Part shown: positions 6,904 to 35,197 of the stretch, piece after piece
Layout: every line of letters starts with the position of its first letter
Position numbering within the stretch: position 1 is the stretch's first letter
Assembly: GCA_010015585.1 (NCBI GenBank)
Contig: ML975180.1
Strand: one strand, 5' to 3'
From: Eremomyces bilateralis CBS 781.70
Lineage: Eukaryota
DNA: 64,000 nucleotides
Translations under genes and position numbers: made by a program
Notes under the pieces: model-generated
What the model was told of the DNA's origin: nothing
The model's input: only the letters and a program-made list of their open reading frames with translations
Databases searched by the model: none

Positions 6904-7056
6904 GTCGAAACTATATAACTTATCTTTAGACAAGGCAGGAAAATGTTACTTCTCCAGGTTCGCTAATAAGCTAGAAATCTTTTATGCCCATGTTACAGCT
7001 TCGGCATACCGCTTGAACAAACAACGCTGTGCCATGAACATTTATCATAATCAAAC

Positions 7057-7928: not shown

Positions 7929-8476
7929 ACAACGATCACCGCAAATCCGGAACGGCGAACACATCATCAAATCAGTGAAAGGGAGCAAAGATACAGTGTA
8001 TGATTTTTAAGGACAACTCTCCCAACCCAAAATACAATCATCGCTACTATGTAGTCAATGGTGGGGGGTTGTGTCGCAAGATGCCCCTGTTGGTTTCTAC
8101 TGCCCTAACATTCCTTTCACTGCCCATTACCCCTAGGCTAAGCCTATTTCGGACTGTTTAGTCTCTTCCCATGTATTTAGTTATCTTCAACTGTTTGGCT
8201 AGCTAGATCTCCTTTTTGGAGAGAATGGGAATCGTCAATACCAACTTGCGTTAACTATGACTCTACAGCAACTGAGCCAAAGCAGCGAACGTGCTTAATC
8301 ATCACCCCCGCGAAATGCGACAGGTTGAAACTTTATTCCAAAGTGTTGCCAAGGTACTCCGTATTCGCTGGACAGTTTCACGTCACATTGGTGCGCCACT
8401 GCAACTGTCGAGTCCGAGTTATCTTTCGTTGGCAACGCCAAACATAGCTCTGATTCTATTATTCGATGTCGCCTAC

Positions 8477-8990
8477 TCGTCTTACGGCACGATCCGATTT
8501 CAAAGTATCTGCATTAATAATCGAGTAAATATTACTCATTAGCTGTCGCCATTTGTACTATCCACTGGTATAAAGACACTATCTGCAAAGACGGTGGGTG
8601 AGGAGGTTTCAGAAAGGTTCAGAGGACGAGTTTCATGATTATAACTTTTCCAAATCTGCAGCCGAGAGCAACTGTTACGGTTCAAATCAGAGGATTTGGT
8701 TGTGCTTGAACGTTATCCAATTGTTACCGAAAGAGGCGAGAAACAACTCTCAAGAAGTAAATACACGGGTGTCTATGGGCTCGCAAGCGGACAGAGTATA
8801 CGGAATTCTTAATTTCTATAGAAGGTGCTCACAATCTTCGAATATCAAAAAGTGCACGGTACTAAACGGTATCCGACGGTGCTCCGCTTCTGTTGACGTG
8901 TCGGTAGATAAAAGGTACAGGCGCCAACAGAACTATTTGCAATTTGCAAACAGCAAAGACGGTTCGGTTTAAACCACATTTGGCTAGACC
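8477..8990 (-). pseudogene. Relic of the C-terminus and 3' flank of a paralogous NACHT-WD40 NLR
   Basis: Minus strand GNNWITFKHNQIL*F...VALGCRFGKVIIMKL aligns with [15 protein letters not shown]...[15 protein letters not shown] of the NLR at 15427; non-coding 8477-8610 matches 15272-15405. Confidence 0.7.
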
Positions 8991-9407
8991 AACTCTTCCT
9001 CTAAATATATAAAATGTCTACATAGTAAGTCTCTGTCATCTGTGATTTGGAGGTTTCGGTAAATTTGGTCATTACGCGAATACTTAGTTATCAAACACCA
9101 GTCAAATGAACACTACACCAGCGAAGGGGACTTACAAGACACTATTGTGTCGGATAATAGCTTGTTTGACGTTTCTTGACTGCCTGGCAGGAACTCCCGT
9201 TGCTGGTATGTATTTGGTTTTTGGACTGTTGAACTAGATGATGCTCCTTTTTTGATCTCGGCGTTTTGTATTATGTACTATCTATCTCATAGTCACGAAC
9301 AAGAACCCATCGACCTTTGAGGCGGAGTATTATTATACGAAAACAGAGCATTCTCCCCCCCAAACCACACCGCACTGGTTTCAATGTCTTATGATACCTT
9401 ACAATGC

Positions 9408-11338
9408 CTACTCGGTTGTCCGCCGCCGGTGGTGACGAGGGCCAGAAAGCTCCAACAGCTTGCCGAAATCGGGAGTACCCAGCCCAGTCACCGGATCCCA
9501 TCCAGGCACTGCCGCCCAGGAAGCGTCTGGAACGTAGGGTGTTGGGAGGCCAGAATACGCGTCTTTTCCGGTGCAGCCCGTGCTTCCCCCGTGCACGATA
9601 TCCGTGAGCCCCTTATACCCGACGGAGTACAGCCACGGGTTGAGGAAGCCCAAGGGCCCCTTCCCAGCTTCCAGCCGGGCAGCGTTCAGGAGCCCCACGA
9701 TGCCCGCAATGGTCGGGGCAGACGCAGAGGTACCGCCAACGGCAATCTCGTCCCCATGATCGACGACGCGGAATCCCTTGCCCTGCGCCGCGATGTCGGG
9801 GAACCCACGACCTTCCGGGTTATACAGTCCGTCCCACTTGGATCCTAGCTGCTTGAGGAATTTGGAAACGTGTCCAGCTTGCCACTTCGGGCGCGGGAAG
9901 CGGTCGGAGAACCCGCCGGAGGAGAAGTAGACGGCCCGCTCGGGGTTCACTCCGATCGTGCCTCCGACGGAGGTAACATAGGGGCAAGCGGCGGGGAAGA
10001 TGGGCAAGAATCGAGTCGTGTTCTTACCGTCATTCGTCATGCAAGCGCTGGCTACGCCGGTGTCGCCCGAGGAGAAAAGTACGGAGACACCGCGTGCCCC
10101 GAGGCCGCCAATGAGGTCACAAACCTCCTTGGTGTACGTTTCCGGGAGGGACTGCTCGTCTTCGCCGTAGCTGGTTGACAACGTGTGGGGTAACTCATGA
10201 TCCGGCAGCTTAGTCAGGTAAGTGAAGAACTCTAGCCACGGCTCGTTCTGGTTGTCCTTCGGGTCCGGTTGGTCAAGATCTGGGACCAGAGGCCCACGTC
10301 CAGGGGTGGAATAGAAGACTTGAGGAATCGGATAGCTCAAGCTTGTGGTGTATTGGATGTCCAGACTGGCCTCGACAGAGTCTTCTGTTGAGTTCTGATC
10401 GTTGGAACCGCCTGAGGAATTTAGTATCAAAGCCAGAAATTGTGACACAAGTGGTACGTACCGTTCACAGATTGGAATTTGAAAGTGGCGTTTGCCGCAT
10501 CGGGACGGTACTTCTGGAGGAACTGGGTAAGATCTCCCTGCCTTGCATATTGGTCCAAAAAGCCATTGACACCGACGAACCCCGATCCACGAGCCTTCGG
10601 AGTAAAGCCTTTGATGTTATACAAGTCGATCAAACATTCCGGAGTGATGCTTGAGTTGCAAGAAGGGCTAACGGGTTTGCTGACAGCGCTGACGGCCCCG
10701 ATCCTTTGCCTGACATGCACTGTATTCCGTTGGGCCCGAATTTGTCCGAATCGTGTCGTGGGCTGGATCATAGAGATATGATCTCGGATGTCTTCTGGTA
10801 CCGAATACTCGTCGGTCCTGGTGATGTCGACAGGCTTCACGGTGCTTCGATAGATTTGGTAGTTGGTGTTGAGCATTTCCTCCACCTGGCTGACGGTGGC
10901 TACGAAGTTGATCCACTCGCCGTCGTCTTCGATATCCTTGGAAGATATACCAGATTCCCCCAGCCAAGATAGGACCGAGTCGCTCGCTTCCTGATCCGGC
11001 TGCCGCAGGGCCTTCAGCTCATCGCGCTTGAGATGCTGGCCATACCTCCGGTTATTTGGGGTTGCAATGTCAAGCAGGGTTTGGTGGTAGAGATCCTCGT
11101 TCGGCTGGGGGTCTTTGTGTCAGCTTAACTTTCTTCCATGGACAGGCGGCTGGCGGACCTTGGTAAGGGCAATACGGAAGAACATCCGCTTTGAAGGCTC
11201 GGGTTTCCCAACGACCTCCCATTCAGAAGGGACATGGACGGACTCAACAACAGCGAATTCCTTATGCGAGGTCCGCGACGCGAGGGCGCTGCCGGCCAAA
11301 ACGGCCGCGAAGCTCGAAAATAGAACAGAGATTCTCAT
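9408..11338 (-). CDS. Secreted tripeptidyl-peptidase / sedolisin (peptidase S53), 3 exons
   Basis: Signal peptide MRISVLFSSFAAVLAGSALA, pro-domain, EASLDIQY, SSGDTG, GRGFPDIAAQ, GGTSASAP, WDPVTGLGTP. Confidence 0.95.
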
Positions 11339-13019
11339 TTTAAGCTCCAAAGAGATGAAAACAAACCGTAAAGAGCGACAAGATACTCAAACGAATGTTC
11401 CAACCAGAGTATTAGCGAAAGTAGGTCGGTTGGACCTTATGGCGACGGAGGGGAGCAGCTTGCAAACGGACAGCATTGCGGGTATCACGATATAAGTAAC
11501 GATTGCCCCATTGTTAGGTTATGATGGTCCAATTGATCGGCAGAGTTGTTTACAGTAGAGGTTAGACAAGCCTGTTGTATCACGGTCAGATCAAGCACAG
11601 ATTCGCCGTGATGGAGATTGACGATGCTGGAAACAGGGATTGATTGTCTACATTCATGTTTCGCGTCGACCCGGCCGGTCTGTCATCCTTGAACGGCCAA
11701 TTTGAGGGAATGCAGCGAGCTATCTTCCAATCCATCGGATCAAACGGCGGGATCGTTGTCTCATGGCGGGTCCAAGTAGGATTTGACGATGGAGAAAGGA
11801 GGATCGTCAGGGCGGCGCGGGTTGCAATCCAGGGGGGTCATGGAATGCCTTGTGCAAGGGGCTGAGATTCAGCAAATCACACGTCCTGACGCGAATGCCC
11901 AACCACCAACCTCGTCCTTCGGCGCGAGTACCAACAATCCACATCTTCCGACGAATTCGCGTGTATGTACTACCCTGCGAAGGTACAAGGACAAGGCGTT
12001 GTGGTTTGCTCAACAGCCGATGATGCGTTATTAAGAGTCTATGCTCACCTGCCATTTCTGGCTGGTCTTCTCTCGTTATCAGATATCAGGATCCATAGCG
12101 GGCCACAAGCCCACAACCCTCCGATGGTCCATGTCTCCAGTTCATGGCGCAAGGCGCAAGCGGGATTAAGAAACCAAACAAGCTTCGTTTCCAAGGAAGC
12201 CTAAACAAGCTTATCAACCGACAAGCTGCATTGGCACCGCTAGATCCAAGGGCTAGGATAGGGGCCGTCAAGAATCCTCCTCGAAGACCACGGGTACGCC
12301 TTCAGCGACGTAGGATGCGGAAGGTGTTCAAGATACAGTATGCAGAGATTTGCCGATCCAAATCTCTACCCGAGTGGATGCTGAAGGGCTTCCCCAGAAA
12401 AAGAAGGTAGTATGGCTGATGAGTGATGACTGAAGTAATGGCAGATGGCAGATACCCATGCCCTCATCATCCGTCATGGAGTCTATACTCTTGAGGAAGT
12501 GGAAGAATCGTACGGAATAACGTTGTGTGCTACCGAAACTGCCTCCAAAAACGGAGGTTTCTGATGCCATTCTCTGCGGTCTTTCCGCCTAGGCGAAACG
12601 CCCTCGTTTCGTTACCGGCGGCGCCCAAAACTCCCTGCTACAGTGCCAAAGCCCTGCACGCGCTCAGGAGTGTGGTTCTACAGACCAAACTTGGGGGGAT
12701 CCGATTTTGGAATTCCGTCCCTCAGTTTTTCGTTTTTCGACCTTCGCAACTGCTATGCCTCTATGCTAATTTCGGAAGCATGATGGTGTCAAACGCTATG
12801 GCTCCGCTACAGAGCCTCCCTTTGCCTTCGCACATAATAACCAATGTCGAGGCCCGTCGCTCGATGGATCGTTTCGTCGTACCCGTTTCTGTTCTCTTCT
12901 TTGCCTGGGCGCTCGTTATTTCGCTGTTCCAGACCGATCTCTATTATCCAGCTGCCTTTGTTAAATTGCCCTTCGCTCTCTTACGGGACCGCTCTCTACA
13001 TCGATCTCCGAGACCATCG

Positions 13020-15190
13020 TAATGAGAAGGGGAAACAAGTCGCAGCGGCGCGGCAAAACGGATACACCACGAGACTGCGTACTATGAATCGATCTAGGCC
13101 GACGACCTAACCCCAGCATCGCGCCCTATCATAGACGCAATCGAGAGGCGAGTTGGCTATGTGTGGAAGAAGTGGATAGAGTGTATTCAAGGCTAGGATT
13201 TCCCAAGTTTTAGACTAACTGTCTATACCTCTAATCAGATACTGTTCGCTCCGAATCCTTGACCCCGACGCTCTTGCCCGCCTGCGAAACATCAGCGTAG
13301 CCGAGATCCGGGGATTCATGCTCTGGTATCTGGACAACCATGCTATGACAAAGCTGAATTCCTTCTATGTGCTGATGCGTTACTGGCGGATGATGTACGC
13401 TCGGAAGTTATACCAAAGGCTTGACCTTGTCATCGCTTCGGATATGAAAGACGTAGGGCTGTGGCTCCCTCTAGAGACTGTCTCTGCAGTATCTTTAACG
13501 TATGGTTAGTTCATCGGCACCGTCATAAAAAGCGAGTACAGCTTGAGTGAAGGTATAAAAAAGAAGCCTGTTATGAACGTAGATGATATATACTTGCTCC
13601 TATTCTCCTACTGCGCGATATCGAACGAGTACTACGCGCACGAGCGGGAAAGAGTTCAACATAGTCTGATTATCCTTTTCATGATCAGCACCTCTACAAG
13701 GCCGTCGACTCTCGTCGAAGGTGGCGGCTACTATAACACAAGCGAATGCCTGAAGTACAAGGATATTGAGATATTCAAGGTCAACGATCCAGAACTCCCC
13801 TCTCAACAAGTCTTTTCTTATAAGAGTCCGGCTTCGGCTTCTCAAGGGCAAAAGAGACAAGGGCCTGCCGTAAGTGTTATGCAACCCCTTTTGAGTTCAC
13901 ATCGGCTAAGGTTATAAAGGATCAAGGTGATGTTTTGTGAGCGAGACGATAATCTTTCTTTTTACGCCATTCTGCAGGTTTTAGGTCTCGCCTTCGTCAA
14001 TAACGCCTTCGACAGCGACTGGATCAAGCAGCCTAAGGACTTCCATACATTTTCGGTCCCATCTCACCAGAAAAGTGTGCAACTACATTAGAAAGAGTTA
14101 ATATATGACATTACGATTCTCCGGCGATCTGTTGTTCGCGGCGGAGAGGTGACCATATTACCGGATAAATCGGTTCAGTATATGAATCTCTATTACCAGA
14201 ACGCGCGACTAGGCATATCTGCTGGCTTTGCAGATACTCTCGGGCTATACAGCTATCGCAGAGGTGCTGGTGAAGTGATTGATTGTAAGCGCACATTCTC
14301 ACTCCTATGTACATTCCTACGCCAGCAATTTTCCTACATCCGCGTGCTTTCTTGGCCTTGTTGGGGCTTCCCTTGCTAACGTCATTTCTAGACGTAGCTG
14401 GTTCAGATATGGGGAGCTTTGTAATGTAATGGACCATGCTCGTACAAGTCTCTTTGAGCGCTATTATCGTAATAGCGTTGTCCAGCTCGACTCGGTATCT
14501 GCGTCCCTCGAAGTGCCTTCCAAAGACGCGCTGATCAAACTGGCTGGGCATATGAGTTTGACCCGGGATCCCTTCGCGGCCGACTTGATTAACGTCGAGA
14601 CCTCCGCAATTGACTGCGATCATGGTATCCAAGAAATCGAGAAGTCGTCGTGCCTTCCGCTTCGGAAAAGCGTCATTGAAACTTTTGGGAAGATTAAGAA
14701 CGGAAGGGGCACGGAGCTCAGCGATACGTCCTAACGCGAGCGAAGCCATTTACGCAGCGAGAGGATCAAGGTGAAATGGGTACTCGAAGTAGAAGTCCGG
14801 TGATAGTATTTCCGAACCACCGGGACTAGGTATATCGATGAACAGCGACGCGGCATCACTCGTGAGTATATCGAGCCGAAACCTGTATTCCAATTCGAGG
14901 AACGGGAGAGACTAGCAGCGCTCCTCTTCTAGAGCCGAGATGTTCGGCAAGTATCTAAGGAAGAGATTTACGAACAGCGCATTGCAGCGATGGGTAACCT
15001 GATCAGCCTATGCGGTCGGCATTTGCCTCGCCCTGCGCCCCGTCGTCATCTCTCGTTGCGAGATAGATCTCTAGAAGAGATCCCCGAGGAGGCGAAAGAT
15101 TTGGACCCCGATCTCTTCCCGTCCGGGCACCCAATGCCTGTTTTGTCTCGGCAGTCAGAGTCTAGGGCCGCAGTCTAGAATATTCGCGCA
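13020..15190 (+). pseudogene. DUF3435 tyrosine recombinase ('captain'), multi-exon, with frameshifts and nonsense codons; 5' boundary approximate
   Basis: KPVMNVDD...HERERVQHSLIILFMISTSTRPSTLVE...LKYKDI; YSYRRGAGEVID; NVMDHARTSLFERYYRN...GHMSLTRDP; C-terminal TQCLFCLG. Confidence 0.85.
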
Positions 15191-15426
15191 GTCACTAGCG
15201 AAATTGGCTTCCGCTTAAACGCAGCCCTAAACGTCGTTCCAACTTGCCGCAAGGGTGTTTCACTGTTACTATCATCTTAAGGCGTAATTTGGTTTTAAAG
15301 CCTTTGAATTTCTAATCAAACATTACTCATCGGCTGTCGCCACTTGTGCTATTCATGTAGTATATAAAAGACACTATCTGTAAGGGAGGTGGGCGCGGAG
15401 GAGGTTAAAGAATGCTTAGGGCAATA

Positions 15427-18400
15427 TCACAAAGTAAGTTCCATGGTCATAACTCTTCCAGATGTATATCCGAAAGCAACAATACCCCCAGAAACAGCAA
15501 TAATGCTTGGCCGATACTCGCGAGGAAGCCAAAGGATCCGCTCGGTATGGCTACTTACCCAGTTGTCATTGACAAAGATAGAAGACGGATATTGTAGACT
15601 GGTTACACCTATACCACCAGAGAGAGGGAGTAAAATAGGCAAGGATCCACGGTCTGTCTGGAGAGAGGTACCATCATCGGAGAAAGAGAGAGCGTAGACG
15701 ATGTCTCCCATATCATGCGTTTGCTGTAGCACGCCCGACCCGACATCCCACAGCTTGACCGTCGCATCGTCCGATGCCGACGCCAGCGTCTTGCCGTCCG
15801 GAGCGAAGGCCACGGCGTAGACCCAGTGCGAATGGCCCTTGAGCGTCTGCTGTAGCGTTCCGGACCCGGCGTCCCATAGCTTGACAGTCCTGTCGTTCGA
15901 TGCCGACGCCAGCGTCTTGCCGTCCGGCGCGAAGGCCACGGCGAGGACCGAGCCCGAATGGCCGTCGAGCGTCTGCTGCAGCGCGCNNNNNNNNNNNNNN
16001 NNNNNNNNNNNNNNNNNNNNNNNNNNNNNNNNNNNNNNNNNNNNNNNNNNNNNNNNNNNNNNNNNNNNNNNNNNNNNNNNNNNNNNNNNNNNNNNNNNNN
16101 NNNNNNNNNNNNNNNNNNNNNNNNNNNNNNNNNNNNNNNNNNNNNAGCGCGCCCGACCTGGGGTCCCACAGCTTGACCGTCCAGTCGTTCGATGCCGACG
16201 CCAGCGTCTTGCCGTCCGGCGCGAAGGCCACGGCGCGGACCGAGCGCGAATGACCCTTAAGCGTCTGCTGAAGCGCGCCCGACCCGGCGTCCCACAGCTT
16301 GACCGTCCCGTCGTTCGATGCCGACGCCAGCATCTTGTCGTCCGGCGCGAAGGCAACGGCGAGGACCGAGCCCGAATGGCCGTCGACCGTCTTCTGCAGC
16401 GCGCCCGACCTGGGGTCCCACAGCTTGACCGTCCAGTCGTTCGATGCTGACGCCAGCGTCTTGTCCGGCGCGAAGGCCACGGCGAGGACCGAGCCCGAAT
16501 GGCCGTCGAGCGTCTGCTGCAGCGCGCCCGACCTGGGGTCCCACAGCTTGATCGTCCNNNNNNNNNNNNNNNNNNNNNNNNNNNNNNNNNNNNNNNNNNN
16601 NNNNNNNNNNNNNNNNNNNNNNNNNNNNNNNNNNNNNNNNNNNNCCGTCCGGCGCGAAGGCCACGGCGAGGACCGAGCCCGAATGGCCGTCGAGCGTCTG
16701 CTGCAGCGCGCCCGACCCCGCATCCCACAGCTTGACCGTCGCATCGTCCGATGCCGACGCCAGCGTCTTGCCGTCCGGCGCGAAGGCCACGGCGTAGACC
16801 CAGCTCAAATGGCCCTTGAGTGTCTGCTGCAGTGCGCCCGACCCGGCATCCCACAGCTTGACCGTCGCGTCCTCCGATACCGACGCCAGCGTCTTGCCGT
16901 CCGGCGTGAAGGCCACGGCGTAGACCCAGCCTAAATGGTCCTCGAGCGTCTGCTGCAGCGCACCCGACCCGGCGTCCCACAGCTTGATCGTCCTGTCGTT
17001 CGATGCCGACGCCAGCATCTTTCCGTCCGGCGCGAAGGCCACGGCACAGACCGATTCCGAATGGCCGTCGAGCGTCTGCTGCAGCGCGCCCGACCCAGCG
17101 TCCCATAGTTTAATCGTCCCGTCGCTCGATGCCGACGCCAGCGTCTTTCCATCCGGCGCGAAGGCCACGGCGCGGACCGAGCGCGAATGGCCCTCGAGCG
17201 TCTGCTGCAGCGCGCCCGACCCGGCGTCCCACAGCTTAACCGTCGCATCGTCCGATGCTGACGCCAGCGTCTTGCCGTCCGGCGTGAAGGCCACGGCGCG
17301 GACCGAGCGCGAATGTCCCTTAAGCGTCTGCTGCAGCGCGCCCGATCCGGCGTCCCATAGATTGACCGTCGCATCGTCCGATGCCGACGCCAGCGTCTTT
17401 CCGTCCGGCGCGAAGGCCACGGCACAGACCGATTCCGAATGGCCGTCGAGCGTCTGCTGTAGCGTGCCGGACCCGGCGTCCCATAGCTTGACCGTCCTGT
17501 CGTTCGATGCCGACGCTAGCGTCTTGCCGTTCGGCGCGAAGGCCACGGCGAGGACCGAGCCCAAATGGCCGTCGAGCGTCTGCTGCAGCGCGCCCGACCC
17601 GGCGTCCCACAGCTTGACCGTTCTATCGCTCGATGCCGACGCCAGCGTCTTTCCGTCCGGCGCGAAGGCCACGGCGTAGACCCAGCCTAAATGGTCCTCG
17701 AGCGTCTGCTGCAGCACACCCGACCCGGCGTCCCACAGCGTGACCGTCCTGTCGTTCGATGCCGACGCCAGTGTCTTTCCGTCCGGCGCGAAGGCCACGG
17801 CGCGGACCGAGTCCGAATGGCCCTCGAGCGTCTTCTGTAGAGCGCCCGACCCGGCGTCCCACAGCTTGACCGTCCTGTCGTTCGATGCCGACGCCAGCGT
17901 CTTTCCGTCCGGCGCGAAGGCCACGGCGTAGACCGAGCCCAAATGGCCCTTGAGTGTCTGCTGCAGCGCGCCCGACCCGGCGTCCCATAGTTTAACCGTC
18001 CCGTCGCTCGATGCCGACGCCAGCGTCTTTCCATCCGGCGTGAAGGCCACGGCGCGGACCGAGCGCGAATGGCCGTCGAGCGTCTGCTGCAGCGCGCCCG
18101 ACCCGGCGTCCCACAGCTTGACCATCCTGTCGTTCGATGCCGACGCCAGCGTCTTTCTGTCCGGCGAGAAGGCCACGGCGTTGACGCGGTCCGAATGGCC
18201 CTCCAGCGTCTGTATTACCGCATGCCATTTCTCCTTAACCCTTGGCGAATTTCGTATCCATCTAGGCATACAGTTTACGAACTGCTGTCTTATTATACTT
18301 ATTGTCGGTGCGAATACGAGGGCACTGCAGTACGTCTGAAGGGGAGCCTGCTCGATAATATGTCGGTTATAGAGCACGAACCGCTTCGCATCATGGATAA

Positions 18401-20217
18401 ATTTCGAGAGACTAGGACAGCCACTTAACTGGCCAAATTGTTAGCGAATACTCTGTAATATGCTGTAGATAGTTATACTAACGGAAGTAAACGACCCCAA
18501 AGATGTGATAGCATAAACTCCTTCCGACACCATTCCCATCCATCCAAGGGCCTCGAGCCAGTGAAGAAGATGTTCCTGTAAGAATTGATGCACTTGACCA
18601 TTATCGTAAAGTCGAGTACCGCTTTTCTGGAGGTGCTGGATCCAGTAAAGACATGCATACTGGACTTCAGGAGGTAAACTTTGTGTAACTCGGCGTCTCT
18701 CGGCATTGGCTACAAGCATGCCGGGGGCATTCACGCAACATATATCTTGCTTGAGTGATAACGACATAAGCTGGATACAGCTGTTGGTTAACACTTGGTG
18801 GGCTTTCTTCTCGTCTACCCATAAGTTTGGATCTCCGCATCTCTTTTCATCGAGGAGAAAGTCGCGAAACGAAGGGTGATGCAGACGAAGTGGATATATG
18901 TCGACCTTGGGAATGTTTAGAATCGCATGAAGATCCCTGAGCACCTGACCAATATTTTGCTTGGGGATATTAAGTAGCCTGTGAAGCGAGCCGGCAGAGA
19001 GCGGGGAGAAGAGCACCACGATGCTTCCAAGAATATGACTTTGCATGCCATACAATGCTTCCTTCTCTTTCGCTAAGTAACCTAACCGGATAGATTTCTT
19101 TAGGACGGTAGTATAGAGCTTATTAAGGTGTACTTCTGGATGCTCTTCTGGTGCAGGAATAGAGGTACTACCTTCTAACAAAGTTTGCACTCTTTCGTCT
19201 GCGAGATAACCTTCTTGAATGAACCGACAAGCGGTTGCGGCCCAAATGAACAATCCCCCTGCAGTCTGGATCAGGCTTTTGATAATCTCTTCGCCTGGCC
19301 AGGAGTCATCTAGAGAGTGCTCCTGTCCAATGAGCTTAAGATTATACTCGAAGAAAACAGAGATATCGTGATCTACGATAGAGGGTGATATGCTGTGAAG
19401 TACAAAATCCTGGATATTCGCATTCGGTAGCTGACGGAATCCATATCGGATTGGAATTTCAGGTCGGCTTGTCAGCAAGACTCGTAGTCGAACCGTCTTT
19501 AACAATCGAGCTTCAGCTAAGAGGTGTATGATAATCCGGATGTTATTGTCACCGTCGCACTCATCGAGCGCATCAACGACAAGAATGTACGAGGACTGGC
19601 CACCGTTTTCACCTAGCTTTAATAGTGGACCTAGGATAAGTTGCTGCCACTGGTCACGGAGGGACTGGCTCGCAATGTCGCGGTGCTCTATGATGGCATC
19701 GCAAATGTACTGTTGGAGAGAGGGTATGTTGTTCGCCAGCTGCCACGCAATGCTCGTGATGAACTTGCCTGCATGGTTGACATCCCCACCGCCGCGCGAG
19801 AAGAAGAAGCTGGCTCCGAGATGCTTCTCATCGAAGCCTCTGCGGGCGACAGTGCGCGCAATTGTCGACTTGCCCGTGCCGGCCAAGCCGTTCAACCAGA
19901 AAATAGAGCGCCCATCTTGCCTGTCAGCCCAGTTGTATATCTCTTGGAGGAGGTCGACGCGGGTATCGGGAAGGCAGGCCGGGTCGTGTTGTCGCTGGTA
20001 TGTATTGAACGGCGCGTCCTTTGCGGTAGGGAGGGAGTTGAGCACATCGTTCAAGTCTAGATTGCCAGTAAGCTTCCTGCTGCTTTGAGGCCATAGCCAG
20101 CTAAGCACCCTCACTTTTGCTGCTCCCAAAGTTCACAGACCCATGGATAGTGCCAGCCACGACCTGCGAATTCTGGTTGGCGGACACACCACTAATAAGT
20201 TGAGTGCTGCCTGACAT
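15427..20217 (-). CDS. NACHT-WD40 NLR (NWD/HET-E-like); exons ~20217-20115, 20056-18483, 18428-15427; two N gaps in the repeats
   Basis: P-loop [14 protein letters not shown], Walker [31 protein letters not shown]; at least 18 near-identical 42-aa WD40 repeats; introns with GT/branch site/AG keep the frame. Confidence 0.93.
15720..18210 (-). repeat. Tandem 126-bp WD40 repeat array with high internal identity
   Basis: Unit [42 protein letters not shown] repeated; assembly gaps fall inside the array. Confidence 0.97.
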
Positions 20218-21380
20218 GAGCTTGGAATAGCGACGCTAATTCGCTCTCTTCTGGCGCATGTTGCTGTGTATGTGGGCATGCGAACACCTGGGAGTGAGTT
20301 CATGTCTGTATGCAGATGAGGTTCATCCTCAATCCTCAACTAGCGAATGCATTCGCAAGGCTCGCCAATCAACACTCCTGCCTTGCCGCTATCCACTGCT
20401 GGAGAGCGGCTGTCGGCTGCAAGGTAGGGCGGACCTAACACCAAGACCATTTGTCGACACTATCAAAGCGAGCATCTTCCATTTCGGCGGCCAACGGGCG
20501 CTGTACCCCCTCCGAACTTGAAGCAATGTCTTATATCACTCAGGTTGACTGTATTTATAATATCAAGCGCGAAAATAGAAATGGAAATGTTATCCACTAT
20601 CTTTCGTCAAAGTAGGAACCCTTGATTGTGGACTGTGGAGTTTCTAGACTGGCCACGGCCGGTAACCCTGCCGCCCTGTCATCCTCTATAATTATCCTTA
20701 TTACTCTCTAAGCCGGCTTGGTTTTGGCACGCGATGCTTATAGACACATTCTTCCGGTCCTCGAATGCCTCGAGGTCGCCGCGGCCGCCCTTTCTGTCCC
20801 TTCTGCTACGGCAGAGGCTAGTTGCAGCTGGGAGCGGAGTCGTGTCGGTCATGCGCGAGCGAGAAGGGGAGAGCGATTGGGTGACAGGGGCCCGTTAGGG
20901 AAAGGTGCAAGGAAAGGCGAGGAGGGCGAAGGAGGTGAAAGGTGGGGACAGTTTAGAGGAAAGAACGAAGATGGAGAAGTCCGAGCTAGGGAAGAGGACA
21001 CCCAAAACCAGAAACGGCAGGTGACCACCCCCGCCACCATGTCGAATATTTTTAAAAAGTCACACCTTGCATCGTCTATCATTCCTTACACTTAGTTAAT
21101 ATCCATGGCTTTTCTGAATCTCAATTCCAATATGTACTTCCCCGACACAATGCGGTGGTGCAGGGCAGCTATAGACCCCCCTCTTGCCTCACCTCAACCG
21201 AGGGTTGTGTGAGAAAATCGTGATAGGGCCAAATTCGAGGCCCCCTGCCCAGCACCACCAAAACCACCATCAAACCACTCATACAGCAAAATATCACTTT
21301 CCAGGCGGTTCACATGTAAATTTGAGGCTGTAGATTTCTATGTAAATAGTAATGTCGCGAGAGTTTCAGGCGTTGAGCTC

Positions 21381-22464
21381 TTAATAACGTGATTGAAGCC
21401 CATTTCGCTCTGCAATCTCTGCCATCCTGTCAGGCATAGATTCGATATAGGAATCGATCTCATGTTGTGGAATCTTGTTCCATTCATCGATGATCGCATC
21501 CTTGAGCTCTCCCTGAGTTTTGGGATGCCGTTTACGCTGTTTTAAGCGCTGTTTTAGGATCCTCCAGACGTTCTCAATTGGGGACATATCTGGAGGTCCG
21601 CATACCAAGGAATCCCCCATTCAGACATGAACTTTTTCACCCTATTAGTCTTGCTCCGGGTTCCGTGGCACCCATCATTTTCAACCTCGAGGAGGAAGGG
21701 CCTCCCTTCCTTCCGAAAACGCTGGAAAAGGGGGACGATATAGGGCTTCAAGATCTCGTCGCGGTAACGGGTCATATTGAGTCCAGATTCGCGACCCCCC
21801 GGCCTCTCCTTTTTGTGGTATTCGTAGAATACGAGGTGGCTCTTATATCCCATCCCTACGGCACCCCAGGCGTGGAGGACATTTTTTGGTCTCTTTTTCC
21901 TATGCTGAATGCAATCAGGGCAATACCGCTCCTCTTTCCCGCGGATTACCCACTTTGAGTTCTCCATACCAAGATGGAAATGGGCCTCATCTGAGAAGAC
22001 AACGTATCGCCAGAGGGGAGTCCAAAGGCGGTGGTCCTGAGCGAATTGGTAGCGCTTGATCCGGTTCTCCTCCTTGATATACGGTTTTTGACAGGCACGG
22101 CACTTCTGGAATCCCTCACGCTCAACGGCTGATTTAAGGGTCTGCCAATGGCATCCGAGCTTCCAAGATCGCACTATCTCCTCAAATGACTCGATTCGCC
22201 GGTCGTAATGACCGACGAGCCACCGGATAATAGCCTGGATCTGTTCAACCAGGAGACTCCGTGGGCGACCTCTTGCGGTCCCGACCCTGCCTTATTAGTT
22301 CGCCTAGAACTCCTAGCTCTTAAGATACGATATCCTGTGGCCGTTGAAACACCACATCGTTTAAAAATATCGTTATTTGAGAGCTCTGGGCAATGCCTCC
22401 GGAGGGTCCGAACTTCCTCCCTTTCTGGGGTTGACCGCACGTGACTTTCGGGCGCTGGGGACAA
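21381..22464 (-). pseudogene. Tc1/mariner (DDE_3) transposase, frameshifted
   Basis: N-terminal HTH (GVSTATGYRIL), VVFSDEAHF, EVENDGCHG, PPDMSPIENVW spread over three frames. Confidence 0.85.
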
Positions 22465-23161
22465 CGATGGTGTCTGGAGCGGTTCGTACGGTGGTGTAGG
22501 CTTTTTGCGCGGGCGTATAAATCTCTCTCTCTCTTAAACCTACGGTAGGTACTAGACACCTCTGCCGTAAACCACAAGCGACCGCACCACCCCACCCATC
22601 GCGTCGCATATCCAGATGAATCTTGATATTTCAACAGAATGGCTCGTTACCGAATCAAACACTGTTCGAAGGGTAGAAGGTATGGATTTCGAACGATTCG
22701 CGGCGCTGCATAACCAACTCCTTGACCTTGCGGGGACAGGACGACCGTTAGAGGACATGGACCATCGGCCTTGGTGGGAGTTTCATCGTTAGGAAGCCGA
22801 AGTTCTCCCCGAAGGACGACTTTCATCCTCCGTCATTCATTTCCTGAAGCGGATTCGCGTCGAAGACGACTCTACATCTACACTGCTTTTCCGTGGCATT
22901 CGCAGTCGACTTGGGGCCTTTGGAGGGTCTTCAGACTTATCGTGATGGAACTTGAGCTCGCTCTTATGCCACCAACTGATTGAAGCTGCAAAATGAAGGG
23001 CATTACCTACCTTTGCGGGTCTGGCTTGGAGGTTTTCAGGCTTAAGTGTAATGGTCTTGCGCCTTTGGCTCAGACGTGGTTGATTGCCTGACGGCCTGGA
23101 GAGGCGCAGGTGGGGTGAGCCACAAGCAACACGTGACTACCTGCATGGCTTCATGCAATGC

Positions 23162-23974
23162 TTACCTCAGGCTCTCAGGCCCTTCAGTGGGACGCAAAGG
23201 CGCTAACCCAAAATGGGTCACCCACACGAAGGGCCTGAGACAAATTTGAAATTTTTTGGTGGCGTTGACGTTCGTGGCATGCAAATTGGTGAGCATTCAG
23301 GTCAACATCATCAGCTTCATGGAATGATTCTACGCGCAATATAGACCAATTCTATCTCAAAAATTTGGAATTCGGAGCTATGGATCCCAGCTATCGACCA
23401 TTCTGCTACACAAACTACCGCGCCCCCCTGATCGCGAGTCCTTGCCTTCGATGTTGGAGGCGGTAACAATGAAGATGGAGCAGATGCGCCATTTTCTGCT
23501 ACAGTCGAAGAAGAAGATCCTTTAGAAACCATATTCAGAGATCGGCTGTCCAAGAGTTCTACGTCAGTTCAGCAAGCATATACGAATCAATAGGCAGAAG
23601 GAACTCACTCTCTTCCGTCCTTAAGGTTCGCTGTTAGTTATTAAATAGTTCTCGCATCTCCAATATCAATGCTGCAACCTACTACTATTACTCAGGTCTC
23701 AGGATTCTTCATGACTACTTAGCCACCTCGCCTAATGAGATCGGGGATTTAGGAATATGTTTGGTTGCCGACTTGGACGCGCTGTTTGGCTTCGTACTTT
23801 GACTTGATGTCGATTTCGAGACGAGTTCGCAGCGGAGCTTGGAGGGGCAATTTGCATGCCACGAACGTCAACGCCACCAAAAAATTTCAAATTTGTCTCA
23901 GGCCCTTCGTGTGGGTGACCCATTTTGGGTTAGCGCCTTTGCGTCCCACTGAAGGGCCTGAGAGCCTGAGGTAA
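23162..23974. mobile_element. Non-autonomous element with perfect 127-bp terminal inverted repeats (23162-23288 / 23848-23974)
   Basis: Arms TTACCTCAGGCTCTCAGG...GCATGCAAATTG are exact reverse complements; 559-bp spacer without a credible ORF. Confidence 0.8.
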
Positions 23975-24050
23975 CTTCATGTAGTGTGTAGCAAACTGCA
24001 TGGCCGCCCCAGGCATATCAGCAGACTTCCTTGAGAAGAGAGAGATCTTC

Positions 24051-24082
<32 letters not shown>

Positions 24083-24091
24083 TAACTGAAT

Positions 24092-24322
24092 TCATAACGT
24101 TAAACTATGGTATCGAATCCATTTGACTCGAACCCTCACATTAAGACGCGTTCCCTCTTCCCGTATTACCCTCCCCTTTGTCTGTTCGTTAGGGTCGATA
24201 TGCGCCTCGTCCGTAAATGCGATTGAATCCCAATACCCAAAGAGAGGCTGCTCACGGCCGAAGCGCCCATACCCCACTCTCTCCCTTTTATTCTTAGCCG
24301 AGATAGGTTTCACTTGCTCCAT
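24092..24322 (-). pseudogene. Tc1/mariner transposase fragment
   Basis: KPISAKNKRERVGY...YWDSIAFTDEAHIDP...VIREEGTR (first catalytic D region only). Confidence 0.65.
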
Positions 24323-24733
24323 CTTGAAACGTTGGGCACTGCAACGGTCGACGAGGTTTTTACCGAGGCTGGTGAGATTTCATTGAAAACGGAAAACAGC
24401 GCTATACCAGATACCGTAGGGCGTTGCTAAACTACGAACGGAAGTTCGGTAGCACACAGATTACGTAGTAATTATGAGCTTGGAATCTTCAATGGAAAGC
24501 CGGATATCACATGGCACTTGGCAGGGACCCCTGCCTCCAGCGGAAATCCTTAATGGCACCGTTACTCAGGATCGCTACTTCAATGATCACCCGAATTCCT
24601 TTCCAACAGTCCAATCCTCTCGAGGGTGGTCTATTAGATGTGTAATACCGAATACGTTGGTGATATCAAAATTCGAGTCGTTCACCGAGTCTCCTTTTAA
24701 GTTTTCTCTCTGTTTCTCTGCATTTGTCAAGTC

Positions 24734-25816
24734 TCATTTCCATTCGAAGCCGCTCGCGCAGCTAGCGATTCTATTGAAGTACCATTGATGAGCAACCACA
24801 TTTCCTGGGAGCTTCCCAGTGTTGCCGGAAAGATTCCAATCTCCAGAATATATGGTGATGTCCTTGGGGGTCGGAACAATATTCTGACCGCTCGAAATGA
24901 AATACTCTGGGGATATATGCCGGTATCCAAACAGAAGAGGTGGCAATTGAGGTATCAGATCGGAACCGTGGGTGAGACGATAGTTACCGCCCGGTTGGTT
25001 GCTGATGAATGTCGATAACGATGAGTCCCCCACTCGGGGCGCGCCAAATGTGTACTGCCATTGTCAGCTTTCAGTGCGCGGTTAGGACCGTGGACATACT
25101 AAAGAAATATCCAAGCCCATTGTCCTCATATCCGCAGCAGCTAGCGTCGCAACGGCTGCTCCGAGACTGTGCCCAGTGAACACGATCTGATATCCTGGGT
25201 TCTCCGCAGATACCTGCCGCACGGCGCGAACAACCTGCTCTTTCGCTTCTTGCCATGAGTTCCAGAAACCTTTATGGCCTTTGCAGTTTTTACAGCCCGC
25301 AAGATTGACTGACTCGCCCTCGAAAGTCAGGTCTGCAATATAATTCCTCATGGAGCGAGAACCTCGGAACCCAACGACGATCATGGAGTATTTTCGGGAG
25401 ATGGCGACATATCCGGTTGTATCGGTCGCTGCCGTACTACGGTTACCATCGAGTCAGCAATACCCAACATCACTGCTAGATTGATTTGCGGCTTACTCCT
25501 GAAACTCCGCCACAGTCTGCGTATCTCCTGCCTCAACAAGGGGGCAATTCCCGGCAGAACAGCTCAATGACGTCCCAGGAGAATCATTGTTTGAACGACA
25601 GTATACAGCAGCGCTGAACTGGCTCATAAGCATGAACGTATTCAGCAACTCCTCAGAAACAGCTGGAGAGGTTCAATCAGTGATCATCCCTTAGGATTGG
25701 AGTCAATGGCATGGAGTCTTACATCGCCTCTGCAGCCTAGATTCCACTGGGACAGCGAATACCGTTCGCACGGAAAAGAAGAAAAAGAAAGCTATTGCTT
25801 GAGCCAGCGTGAACAT
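24734..25816 (-). CDS. Secreted class 3 lipase, multi-exon
   Basis: Signal peptide MFTLAQAIAFFFFFSVRTVFA; IVVGFRGS, GHKGF, FTGHSLGAAVATL, YTFGAPRVG, THGSDLIPQLP, HQWYF. Confidence 0.93.
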
Positions 25817-26817
25817 CGCGAAGAGCACGAGAAACGAGTGAAATGTTCGGCTACAGAGGAAATGAAGGGCAGGAAACCGGCGGCGCTCCCTGAACCAGAC
25901 CCGATGCCATCGCCATCAGGTTCTTAAAAGATCATAGGCATATACAATTAAAGGAAAGATCATCCTGTACCTCAGGATGCGGAATGTAACTGTTACCACA
26001 GTCACCGGTGGACTTCGCTAAGCTTGTTCCGAACGTTGGTTCCGGATAATGCCCTGGCGTTCATGCAACGGAATCACACCCCGCTCGATGTCAAGACATT
26101 TTCTGATCCATTGAAATACCCCGAATATCGATAGTGTGGCCTGGTCCGAAGGCATTTCCGGAGAGTTCGAGCGATGAAGAGGATCCATTGGTGCACCCTG
26201 TAAAATAGTGATATACCAAACGAAAAGCCACACACGAAGGAGAGTCTCATCATATTATAGTGTTGGCGAACGGGCATTGGATGACCCTGTGGATCGAACA
26301 GGAACGCTAAACCTAGAATGCACTAAGCGCGGCTAGCACCTTGAATAATTGGCCAATGACAGGGCGATGACTGCTCCTCGCCGAACACTAATCAAGTCGC
26401 GAATGCGCTGTGCATATCTTTGTTTATGTGATGAGAATCGGTGGCTTATTCGATGGACTTTGAGGCGGAGGAACATAGCACGTGGGGATGGCTATGTTAC
26501 GGTATGCCACTGGTGTCATTGGCCGAAGCTAGTCAAGAGTAGGGTAACATCGGCAACTGATGGATATCTGACGGCACTGGCTCGGTATCTTGCACTGATT
26601 TGGCAGCCAAACAAGTCTACGCGGAGATTGTAACTAAATTCCCCAGTTTTGGAACTACGCCGCAAGGGGATATTGATTTGTATTCCTTGGAGTAAGCCAA
26701 CTGATATGCAGATGTAGCTGTATGATCTCGGAAACCCTTGCTAGACTCGACAGAATGCTAACGCCATGCTGATTGCCCGTCATCGTGGTATCATTGTTCA
26801 TCCAATAATCTATACGT

Positions 26818-27983
26818 TTATTCAGGGGGCTGATACGGCGTGACTAGCATTTCGCTGAACCTGTCGAGAAGTCAGTCGCGTGAACCACGAACGGAGTACG
26901 AGAAGGCTCACTGTTCTAGTTTCTCTTTTCCTCGGATCTCCTCCGTCAGCATCGGCATCTTGACGACATTGAACTCATCGTACAGCTCGTCGATCTGCTC
27001 GAGATACTTTTTCTGCATCTTTCTCCGCGCGTTGCATTGCTCGCAGGGGTTGTCCGTCTTCGGGAAGAGCAGCTGGTTGACCACGATGGCGTGCGTGTCC
27101 ATGTTGAACGATGACAGTTCTTGGATCAGGCGCTCCGTCTCGTAAAGCGAGAGGAACTCGGCGATGCACACGCAAACGAAGGTGGTGAGCTCCGGATTTT
27201 GGAATTGCGTGTTGACCTCGCTGATCGTTTTGCGCAGGGCCTCCATTTTCGCCACGAGGTCGTCGAATGACTGACCACCGGGTAGACCTCCACGTGCTCC
27301 GATGATCGAGTTCAGCATGGGTCCGAATTGTGTCGAGAGCTGCGACAGCTTCGCCAGGGCTTTCTCTATTACGCCGGGAAACTGCAGAAATCGAAGAGTG
27401 TGGCCGGTGGGTGCAGTGTCGCAGATCACTAGGTCGTACGACTGTTTCTTGACATGTTTGAGGAGCTCAGCAAAGGAGCATGCTTCGTCGATACCGGGAA
27501 TCTTGGATTGTTAGCCTCTCATGCATGCTCGGGGCGGGAGCGGCTCACATTGAATGCGAGGTCTTGCATCATCCCACCCAAACCCCCCATTTCTTGCGCG
27601 GCATCTTGCGCGGCGTCGCCACCGGACTCGAGTAGATCTTGGATGCTTCCGTTGGGATCGACTTCGATGGCAGAGAGGTTTGTAAAGCCATTGATGAGTC
27701 GTGCTTCCTTGCCGAACTTCTGGTTGAAGGCATCGCTAAGATTGTGGGCTTTGGGCGCTCAGTACATGTTCTCGACTGTTGCGTGCCGTCTAGTTCTCCT
27801 CTTACCTGGATCCGTGCTGATGAGCAGAACGCTTTCACGGACTTTCGCCATTTGGATTGCCAGTGCACAGCTGTTGCTCGTCTTGCCGACACCACCTTTA
27901 CCACCCACAAAGATCCATTTCAACGATTTCTGATCTATTATAGACTGGAGCGTCGGCTCCATCTCAGGGAAATCGTCCGCCAT
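26818..27983 (-). CDS. GET3: ATPase GET3/ASNA1 (tail-anchored protein targeting), multi-exon
   Basis: [48 protein letters not shown]. Confidence 0.97.
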
Positions 27984-32590: not shown

Positions 32591-32690
32591 GATGGGCTTA
32601 TTATGATAGGACTTAAGAGGGATTACCGGTAGATAACACCCCCGTAATTGAGGAATATAATTAGAGAATAGACTTCTCAATACGAAGTAA

Positions 32691-35197
32691 CGTGTGCTAC
32701 CGAAATTGCCTCCAAAAACGTCCGTTTTTGGAGGGTTTTCCGCTCAGGCGAAAAGCTCTCGTTTCGTTAGAGTAATTACTGTCGATGCCCCAAAACTCCC
32801 TGGCACAGTGCCAAGGCCTTGCACACGCTCAACGCGTCATCCAATTTTGGACTTCCTGTAACGACGCTACCACTATGCGCCAAAATGGACACCAACACGA
32901 CTAAACCAAAGTCAATGTTGATTGTGGTAATTCGGTATATCAATATAAGGACCTTCTGGTCAGGCATGCCCTACTCGGTAGGTTCCCCAAGCCATACCGT
33001 GACACTTCTAAGTTCTAACTCTCAATTTTCAGTTTTTCGACCTTCGCAATTTCTATGCCTCTATGTTAGTTATAAAAGCATGTGACACGATCGGGAAAGA
33101 AGTTGATTCGATTTCCGTAAACTCGTCAAACTCAAGCTACAGAAAAGAGGAAAAGAAGAGAAGTCTTAGAGTGCTGGTGGATTATTTACATGTTGGTCTC
33201 CTGTATTCACTCTTCTTTCCTAATTGGGAATCATATCAACACAACACGTTACGAGAGTAGTCAAAGGGAGACTACTTCGTCTCAGTGTTCTTCACATAAG
33301 CCTTGATACTCGCTGCACACCGACCAGCCAGGAGGGGCTATCGGCCGGGGGTAGCATCCACCCAGCCGGTGGTAATGAGCAGCAGGGCCGCGATGTAGGT
33401 TGTCATGACAGCCAAGCCATGGCAGGGTACCGCGACGCCCGCCACGTGAATCCCAATTAACATGTCCGAGATCAGGAACAGCCCCCCGCCCAGTGCCACC
33501 CGCGAGGAGACACCAGTCGCAGTGATGGCCATCAGCGCAAGAGCGAGGCTGTACACGAGCACCGGCACCGCCAGCGGACCCAAAGGCGTCCACAGCAGGA
33601 AATTCGCTACCGCCCAGCAGGGAACGTAGATCAGGAACGCGGTGACGGGAGGGCTACGATGGCGCAAGAACGCGGTGGTGAAGGCAATCTGGGTGACGAG
33701 GAAGCAGCCCATTCCGACGAGGAAGGCCGTTTCGCCGCCGACAAGTAGCGCGATATCGCCACCGCACGCGAGGACGAGACCGATGGCGACGCGGTCGATG
33801 GCCCGGTTTTCCCGTAGCACGTACACCAGAATGAGCAGCACCGGGGCGAGAAGGGGTTTGGACAGCCATTGCAGGGCGATTGAGTTGACGGCGATGCCGA
33901 TCAGGTCGATGGCGGACACCGCGAGGAATGGCCGGAGGAGCTGGAGGGTGGTGCCGAAGTCCTTATAATCGGGACTTGGCTGGATAGCCGAGTGCGGTAC
34001 AGGAGTCTTTCGAGCCATACTTGGATATTGTAACGATGACACCTTGGATCACTCAGTAAGGAATTTGAACAGGTTGATTCGCTAGAATTAAGCTAAAGAA
34101 GAAAGAAAGGAAAGAGGGGGAGGGAGGTAGAGCGAGAGAGAGAGATTCATACAATACGCCCGTCAGGCCTCTTTGCGAGGCCCATGTGGGGAACTACATA
34201 GGCTGACTAATTACATGCGTTGGTGCCTTGTGGCCTTGTGCCTCCATTTTCTATCTTCGTTCTTCTAACTTCCATAACTATCTGCTTCTAACATGGGGAA
34301 TAGGAGGGAATGGTAGAAGGAATGAGATAGATATCCATGGTGGGTGAAATGAAAACACTCAACATGACCCACCACCACATGACCTCTCATCACGTGGTCA
34401 GAACTCCTGATCTGATCTCTACGGGAGCCACCTCATCGTGGGATCGTGGCAGATATTGGCTAGAGGAAGAAAGACTAACACGGAGATCCGGAAAGATATG
34501 GTATTAATGCTACAATGCCCCTTTTCTTACTATATTGATCTGCGCCACGGAAGCAAAGCCTTGGTGCAAGTCACGTGGCATGATCTGCACCAGCCACAAC
34601 CACTCCATTGCTCTGGGACGTTCTCTTACATTAAGTGTAGAATAAAGAGGGATCCTAGGTAGGGCGATGTGATGCTACAGTAAACACAAGATATCTGCAT
34701 TGGTATCACATGACTAGATCACATTAGGTCACATGGCCTTAACTATTTTACCCCTGATCTGTTGTCCTAGCCATACAGCCTTACTGACCCCTCAAAGACC
34801 AGTCTATCGTCGTAATGCAGTGTGCAACTATACGGAATACAGAATCAATTGCTCTCCTAATATTTGCACGTGAATCACTGAAGCATACCATTTTGTATCA
34901 CACTAGCCCATTCCTTGCGTGCTGTGACAGGCGAGGGCGAGAGATTCAGGCGGTGTTAATGGCGCGTGTTAAGGGGCCGATCGGTAGGCGGAATAAAATT
35001 GGTACGGGGCAATGCAAGAGGCAAAGGCAATCTGAGGTATGGAAATGGTAGAAGAGACAGAAGAGGGTTATTGGGAGTTAAGAAGGGGACAGGCGGTGGT
35101 ATTTATGTTTTTTGAAGAGATGATGTTTGAACGAGGAAAACAGCGTTATGCTCGATGCGGCAGCGCTAAATCGAAAACGGAAATTTAGTGGGACGCA
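32691..35197 (+). mobile_element. Captainless (derelict) Starship relative, ~2.5 kb
   Basis: 32681-32830 and 33021-33082 are homologous to the left end of element 1; 35117-35207 is homologous to its right end (24374-24471). Confidence 0.65.
33338..34018 (-). CDS. YhhN/TMEM86-family lysoplasmalogenase, intronless
   Basis: SKPLLAP, GLVLACGGDIALL, FLVGMGCFLVTQ, YSLALALMA, GGGLFLISDMLIG, VMTTYIAA; multi-TM. Confidence 0.9.
   Translation of the reverse strand: MARKTPVPHSAIQPSPDYKDFGTTLQLLRPFLAVSAIDLIGIAVNSIALQWLSKPLLAPVLLILVYVLRENRAIDRVAIGLVLACGGDIALLVGGETAFLVGMGCFLVTQIAFTTAFLRHRSPPVTAFLIYVPCWAVANFLLWTPLGPLAVPVLVYSLALALMAITATGVSSRVALGGGLFLISDMLIGIHVAGVAVPCHGLAVMTTYIAALLLITTGWVDATPGR

Follow-up and report, generated by a model that had tools for sequence, protein, structure and literature searches.

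A probable small and decayed Tardis-family Starship with an NLR-type cargo gene in Eremomyces bilateralis

Starships generally have, as set out in the starfish survey, a captain gene at the 5' end, which encodes a DUF3435 tyrosine recombinase and is followed by cargo; their ends bear direct repeats and, optionally, inverted repeats, and genes for NOD-like receptors (NLRs) are one of four auxiliary gene families that recur in them (PMC11162782). According to the same source, elements below 15 kb were dropped from that survey and the smallest one reported has 15,020 bp (PMC11162782); the minimum given for a set of Starships from Aspergillus fumigatus is 16,357 bp, and a pipeline described elsewhere in the Starship literature filters at 30 kb. 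Here we describe an 11,961-bp interval (12511..24471) in a 64,000-nucleotide stretch of contig ML975180.1 of Eremomyces bilateralis CBS 781.70 (assembly GCA_010015585.1), hereafter the window, which is chromosomal DNA of an ascomycete and contains three runs of N. We consider this interval, with a probability of roughly 80%, to be a decayed and small (11.96 kb) copy of a Tardis-family Starship that was inserted in the spacer separating the genes for an S53 peptidase and a lipase. The initial annotation of the window had proposed a Starship with a 5' captain and NLR cargo, and the DUF3435 gene, the border repeats and the cargo were all found; its description of a small and boundary-resolved member held for borders and size, while the suggested undescribed family gave way to a described one, fam03 or Tardis.

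Tardis is the name given to family 3 in Table 1 of the starfish survey (PMC11162782), and the published Tardis repeat is either ctacggagta or tacggagtaa upstream combined with tacggagta downstream. The latter pair is given for Aspergillus elements in the starfish supplement (PMC11162782), where tacggagta has at least 29 occurrences, and among those listed 28 are from Aspergillus and 1 is from Coccidioides (PMC11162782). As reported for A. fumigatus, the repeat is over-represented genome-wide and conserved in other Eurotiomycetes. The Tardis family, with Tardis h1 of A. fumigatus as an example, is the closest known system. It shares with the interval studied here a captain in first position that points inward and an inverted repeat 2-4 nt inside the direct repeat, and the TACGG(A/G)ATAA-type direct repeat of the present interval is one mismatch from the published Tardis one; the terminal inverted repeat (TIR) of Tardis h1 is agtctgcggtgacg, and the arms of the two elements show just a loose likeness (7 of 13 positions agree by eye). 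The two differ in size (about 31-83 kb in the four rows given for Tardis h1, as opposed to 11.96 kb) and in host class, which is Eurotiomycetes for Tardis h1 and Dothideomycetes-like here. Unlike Tardis h1 in this comparison, the element here is present in several diverged copies per genome and its captain is broken. Cryptons, too, are small elements of eukaryotes that move by means of a tyrosine recombinase, but of a type that lacks terminal inverted repeats and cargo; the DUF3435 match, the inverted ends and the cargo gene of the present element argue against its being a Crypton.

The borders of the element were obtained from its other copies. Contigs of three sequencing runs were aligned on 9000-27500 at a likeness of at least 80%; runs X1 and X2 are probably from the source sample of the window, and run X3 is one other, diverged genome that shares next to none of the words sampled from the window. 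Five contigs begin matching at 12510 in X1, and the same was seen again in X2, with preceding sequences that disagree with one another (agreement 0.52). At the opposite end, five X2 contigs cease matching at 24470, and the sequences behind this point also disagree (0.49). Nine X3 contigs begin matching at 12510, 12511 or 12518. The flanks are different in kind: on the peptidase side 9000-12563 is covered by one source contig with 0 differences at an X1 depth of ~167, on the lipase side 24441-27500 is covered by one source contig with 0 differences, and 12563 and 24441 are also the points at which contigs of the source sample break off. X1 depth stays at ~167, the single-copy level, over 9000-12084 and 25042-27500, and every bin of 12085-24424 is higher; relative to single copy it reaches ~5-7x at the left end and ~4.5x over the DUF3435 gene, and is 1.5-2.3x at 21.3-23.2 kb. 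Both ends recur at about 5 other places with different flanks, where the pairing of the two on one element was unseen.

The window itself contains one more left end of this family, a solitary fragment at 32681..33088 (+ strand). It starts with TACGAAGTAAC and has neither captain nor right end. By blastn, 12511-12666 matches 32681-32831 at 72% and 12721-12782 matches 33021-33082 at 82%, and the match of the fragment to 12511-12788 opens exactly at 12511/32681, after unlike flanks. The core of the arm is found in the fragment with 1 mismatch (32691-32704). A right end was sought near 32681, where the arm core was found nowhere at up to 2 mismatches and blastn returned nothing. The fragment sits between Ldh_2 and YhhN genes and contains ~130 bp that are absent from the main copy. 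Judged by the other copies at both ends and by this fragment at the left one, a repeat family has its borders at 12511 and 24470/24471, with a margin of one base, in agreement with the fully bounded element of ~12 kb that had been proposed.

Terminal repeats coincide with these borders. The left direct repeat, TACGGAATAA (12511..12520, + strand), is one mismatch away from the published upstream Tardis repeat tacggagtaa, and is followed by the left TIR arm, TGTGTGCTACCGAA (12524..12537, + strand). The right arm (24445..24458, - strand) forms a perfect 14-bp inverted pair with TGTGTGCTACCGAA, and the right direct repeat, TACGTAGTAA (24462..24471, + strand), is again one mismatch from the Tardis repeat. 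TACGGAATAA and TACGTAGTAA are alike at 8 of 10 positions, and 3 bp separate each repeat from its arm, so this part of the initial annotation, a perfect 14-bp TIR pair with each arm 3 bp from an 8/10 direct repeat, was reproduced in full. On its own, the 14-bp inverted repeat is at chance level and not significant: when the 14-kb region was shuffled, 37.5% of 200 shuffles contained a perfect inverted repeat of at least 14 bp (mean 0.68 pairs), and the same region holds an unrelated and meaningless 15-bp perfect inverted pair. Such figures would fit an explanation in which the terminal repeats are coincidental and the interval is mere transposon debris beside an NLR gene. However, the borders found independently, from the other copies and from the copy at 32681, agree with the repeats within 1 nt, and three ends bear the motif published for this very recombinase family, which makes coincidence highly improbable. 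The 14-bp pair is beyond chance because its arms sit 13 nt inside both of the independently found borders.

The gene in first position is a captain. Three pieces matching the DUF3435 profile (PF11917) above cut-off are located on the + strand at 13510-13917, 14092-14379 and 14279-14734 (E 9.8e-9, 4.7e-10 and 4.9e-13) and together span profile positions 3-319 of 418. From these Pfam matches and a tblastn alignment with the E. bilateralis protein P0001, the captain was delimited as a pseudogene at 13023..15188 (+ strand). Its likely ATG at 13023 lies 512 bp from the left border, and transcription runs into the element. This agrees with the predicted DUF3435 gene about 0.5 kb from the left end, and the DUF3435 search among the proposed checks gave, besides the three matches in the window copy, strong matches in its paralogues. 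The leader from the left end up to the ATG of the captain (12511..13022, + strand) varies in length among copies, which contain joints at 12553>12624, 12566>13008 and 12782>12964, the last of them also in X3. Because of the joints 12566>13008 and 12782>12964, the left end is joined directly to the captain in other copies.

Residues 18-602 of P0001 map to 12971-15188 at ~77% identity by tblastn, across six in-frame stops and changes of frame, and the captain carries at least 3 frameshifts. At 13074 the window copy is two bases shorter than other copies and at 13813 one base longer, which marks at least two of the frame changes as its own defects. Judged by its reading frame, the window captain is a pseudogene, and given its stops and frameshifts the window copy is unable to move itself. 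Repeat-induced point mutation was considered as a cause of this decay and is unsupported, because transitions of either direction are about equally frequent (in X1, 306 C>T and 240 G>A against 265 T>C and 244 A>G).

When one DUF3435 piece was used as query, four proteins of E. bilateralis CBS 781.70 (P0001-P0004) were retrieved at 78-82% identity (4 at E<=0.001 among 347 candidates), and these match the DUF3435 profile with E values of 1.1e-64 to 1.8e-87. For P0004, the sole full-length annotated paralogue, a search of 1.84 billion representatives gave 1,060 relatives (E<=0.001), the next cluster being only 36% identical. A search of solved structures with its sequence returned a single irrelevant chain (E 0.87). 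A structural model of P0004 built with 44 aligned relatives (mean predicted local distance difference test, pLDDT, 84.8; predicted template modeling score, pTM, 0.80) matched Cre over the full Cre length, with a template modeling (TM) score of 0.70-0.74 normalized to Cre and 17 chains at E<=0.001, and matched XerH, an integron integrase and lambda integrase further down. Arg209, Lys257, Tyr375, Arg378, His417 and Tyr427 are conserved in the 44 aligned relatives (Tyr427 in 44 of 44), and the window captain keeps the codons for Arg, Tyr..Arg, His and Tyr, with the Lys region frameshifted. The model indicates that the captain family is one of Cre-like tyrosine recombinases. P0004 itself has His at position 378, where 43 of 44 relatives have Arg, and two low-confidence inserts (68-82 and 389-398) that resemble unspliced introns; P0001 is without the Lys257 region, and P0002 and P0003 are partial. 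None of the four looks cleanly intact, annotation artifacts may play a part in this, and the whole captain lineage may be inactive in the E. bilateralis genome.

Assignment to a family follows from the captain relatives and the ends. The starfish survey covered one genome of Eremomyces bilateralis and recorded 15 recombinases and 0 elements (table S8, PMC11162782); P0001-P0004 all appear under fam03 in its supplement table S4 (PMC11162782). A row of its Table S3 holds a recombinase merged from three gene models and marked 'n.d.', whose coordinates would fit the captain described here, possibly the same gene (PMC11162782). Each terminal repeat matches the published Tardis repeat TACGGAGTAA with a single mismatch, and the sequences at the three ends found in the window are TACGGAATA, TACGTAGTA and TACGAAGTA, each one mismatch from TACGGAGTA. 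Because the captain is 77-82% identical to the fam03-listed P0001-P0004 and the repeat is one mismatch off, the element is, by the family listing of its captain's relatives and by its terminal repeat, a member of the Tardis family. The family is therefore not an undescribed one, as the initial annotation had thought possible. Words with at most 1 mismatch to TACGGAGTA occur 21 times in the window, whereas 7.35 are expected (sd 2.56); the highest count in 100 shuffles was 13, so that none reached 21, and 18 words are left without the three element ends. This excess of about three times mirrors the over-representation described for A. fumigatus. Examples of such words lie at 8355-8363 (exact), 34831-34839 and 26890-26898, and next to the TACGGAATA at 34831 no arm is present.

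The element is flanked by host genes that are both single copy: on the left a gene for an S53 (sedolisin-type) peptidase (9408..11119, - strand; Pro-kuma_activ E 5.5e-37, Peptidase_S8 E 1.8e-5), and on the right one for a class-3 lipase (24734..25453, - strand; Lipase_3 E 3.2e-22), followed by a Pfam match to a Get3/ArsA ATPase (26908-27510, - strand). Pfam therefore recovered both of the hydrolase neighbors named at the outset. The insertion point, ~1.4 kb upstream of the gene for the peptidase, is also ~260 bp behind that for the lipase, and no 5S rRNA or tRNA gene was found at the site and its surroundings (Rfam 0 matches; ARAGORN 0 genes). One 54.6-kb X3 contig holds the window pieces 9787-10013 (peptidase) and 26816-27498 (Get3), both on one strand and spaced by 4,559 bp as compared with 16,803 bp in the window. 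The difference of 12,244 bp stands beside an element of 11,961 bp, and the DUF3435 matches of X3 are on contigs other than the flank-bearing one. This spacing fits an empty site.

The same difference could arise differently, if only the recombinase and left end (~2.7 kb) formed a mobile unit and the X3 spacing reflected deletion or turnover of an NLR island. Many recombinases could not be linked to cargo and are perhaps solo, according to the starfish authors' text (PMC11162782), NLR loci are highly variable, and depth over the NACHT region is 8-13x single copy. Yet 24470 is also a family border, with five contigs ending there, and the same 14-bp arm and Tardis-type repeat at the right border would go unexplained by a solo gene. 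We regard a solo captain as quite unlikely, and the element bounded at both ends as the better account of the locus.

Behind the captain lie ~9.3 kb that include a NACHT-WD40 gene. This gene (15427..20217, - strand; Pfam matches at 15427-20132, NPHP3_N E 1.3e-30, NACHT E 1.9e-8, WD40 E 5.6e-167) is, by its domains, a fungal NACHT-WD40 NLR of the HET-E/NWD type. Its ATG is at 20217-20215, and exon 1 runs to 20115 (34 codons and the first base of a split codon), followed by intron 1 (20114-20057, 58 nt), the NACHT exon (20056-18483) and intron 2 (18482-18429, 54 nt), which has GTTAGT, CTAAC and CAG signals and holds the sole stop between the NACHT and WD40 parts. The WD40 array after intron 2 consists of 126-bp units and spans 15668-18330, with 15-19 units at 85-88% identity and two assembly gaps inside it (16558-16644 and 15987-16145). 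The frame is open up to the gap at 16558-16644 and lost behind the gaps, which may be an assembly effect. Source contigs often join the WD40 units in other orders, so the unit count is unreliable. Together with the Tc1 relics and a long-TIR element described below, the cargo that had been listed for this interval (one NACHT-WD40 gene, Tc1 relics and the long-TIR element) was found in its entirety.

A search with the NACHT part gave 3,483 relatives (E<=0.001) out of 7,999 candidates, and several of these relatives bear the name HET-E-1 in their source; the best ones, at 71% identity, are P0005 of E. bilateralis and two Phaeosphaeriaceae proteins. Before the NACHT domain, the N-terminus comprises 34 residues rich in Gly, Asn, Gln and Ser (20116-20217, - strand), similar N-termini are present in P0005, P0011 and P0007, and we take this segment to resemble the short amyloid-type signaling motifs of some fungal NLRs. 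A partner gene with the N-terminal motif was not found when the window was searched by three loose patterns; elsewhere these hit 42063-42083 and 63309-63329 only, neither of which shares the N-terminal sequence of the NLR. Since P0005 sits on a contig that differs in size from those of P0001-P0004, this nearest paralogue of the NLR is probably not beside any of the four captain paralogues.

The depth profile and the position of P0005 also bear on whether the interval is composite, with two partial insertions supplying the left end plus captain and the right end, and resident NLR and Tc1 DNA between them. Depth over the cargo is uneven (1.5 to 8x single copy), the contig of P0005 matches in size none of the four contigs with captain paralogues, and partial copies do exist, as exemplified by the solitary left end at 32681. 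However, X3 is without ~12.2 kb, which corresponds to the whole interval and exceeds what the ends alone would account for, and the ends are oriented as in a single element, with matching arms and repeats. Cargo that differs between Starships of one navis is moreover common, according to the starfish text (PMC11162782). A composite origin is accordingly improbable, though somewhat less so than a solo captain, and a single Starship copy remains our preferred interpretation.

If the interval is a single Starship, its mode of movement may be sketched by analogy with Cre/loxP. The predicted fold matches Cre over both domains, and the joined ends would resemble lox arms and core; sequence identity to Cre is ~10%, and the family protein differs by a long helical C-terminal extension (residues about 470-610). 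A Cre-like captain, whose gene starts 0.5 kb in from the left end and reads inward, would bind the inverted arms, and strand exchange would take place within a short TACGGAGTAA-like core common to element and target. Because exchange would fall within the shared core, integration would leave one copy of the core at each end. With the ends joined via one core, TTCGGTAGCACACA, 16 nt and then TGTGTGCTACCGAA would follow one another in a lox-type layout; the loxP spacer is 8 nt long, as compared with the 16 nt between perfect arms here. The predicted empty target reads ...GAATCG-TACGNNNTAA-TTATGAGC... with a single core. All DNA between the ends would travel as cargo, namely the NLR gene and, later, the Tc1 debris and the fold-back element, and with its ends intact the window copy could, in principle, be moved in trans, though a cleanly intact captain is not apparent among the four annotated paralogues. 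The point of strand exchange, the function of the arms and the joint arrival of NLR gene and element are inferred, whereas the borders, the multiple copies, the lack of about 12 kb in X3, the recombinase fold of the family and the repeat motif were shown directly.

Several points weigh against a single Tardis-family Starship. With a dead captain, any movement of the window copy is historical only, and its 11,961 bp are below every element in the starfish and A. fumigatus surveys, although a size limit is an operational filter and no part of what defines a Starship; reports of smaller Starships were not found in open-access text, which need not be complete. Two of the 10 positions differ between the terminal repeats. 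In X3, the presumed empty site has kilobase resolution and comes from one contig of a diverged genome, with pieces of <90% identity and an unread junction, and its spacing is off by 283 bp from simple removal of the element. The full structure of no other copy was read, which leaves the 12-kb size or an NLR elsewhere undemonstrated, and X1 and X2 report copy number inside the source genome and are no independent confirmation. P0005 lies on a 1,593,860-bp contig, a size unlike those of the contigs bearing P0001-P0004. Finally, a Tc1-like fragment is only ~70-90 bp inside the right end, which gives a small chance that this end has another origin.

This fragment is one of three nested relics or elements inside the Starship. 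The first, a Tc1/mariner-type transposase relic at approximately 21400..22650 (- strand), gave an HTH_Tnp_Tc3_2 match (E 2.8e-9) in an open reading frame at 21554-22291, and FSDE and DG.H motifs could be read in its sequence; its terminal repeats were sought and not found. The second (24092..24379, - strand) is a short Tc1/mariner-type relic that is cut at its 5' side and has an FTDE motif; it is 28% identical to the first over 68 residues (E 2e-4) and has no Pfam match. The possibility that the right end of the element is merely the end of this fragment (24092-24379) was rejected, because the at least ~110 missing N-terminal residues would need single-copy host DNA beyond 24470. The third is a fold-back element (23162..23974, no strand assigned), similar to a miniature inverted-repeat transposable element, with 127-nt perfect inverted ends at 23162-23288 and 23848-23974 and a depth of ~4x single copy in the source sample. 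Between the end of the captain and the 3' end of the NLR gene, 15272-15480 contains ~200 bp that are 68% identical to 8477-8672, left of the peptidase gene. Further left of the peptidase gene, Pfam identified DUF7881, HNH_2 and a HET-domain fragment at 5802-7925, a neighborhood that looks like an accessory, incompatibility-type one. Two hAT-type transposase genes (one across an N run) and a pogo/Tc5-type DDE_1 relic are located at 2244-4413, 42650-43520 and 45312-46745.

On the preferred reading, bounded elements exist in a species that the starfish survey scored with 15 recombinases and no element, on the basis of one genome and a 15-kb floor (PMC11162782), and their borders can be obtained from paralogous copies, so that a second isolate is unneeded. 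A natural lineage of 'mini-Starships', with elements of ~12 kb in several copies per genome, is a tentative extension of this reading that we hold to be possible and rather doubtful. If it were true, Starship machinery would work at the size and copy number of ordinary transposons, and pipeline size filters of 15-30 kb would hide a whole class of such elements. The TACGGAGTAA core would likewise have been kept as a target from Eurotiomycetes to Dothideomycetes despite recombinases at ~36% identity, and the over-represented 9-mer family would be an old host motif exploited by Tardis elements. The locus itself extends the Tardis terminal motif to a second fungal class, and the occurrence of the motif there supports the published idea of an old, conserved genomic sequence. 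A captain and one cargo gene between short, defined ends come close to a minimal Starship, which would serve well as a template in assays of excision and integration, and the sole cargo gene encodes an NLR-type receptor, from a gene family that Starships are known to spread. Overall, the locus is best described as a new, very small and inactive element of the Tardis family, and the general understanding of Starships is unchanged by it.

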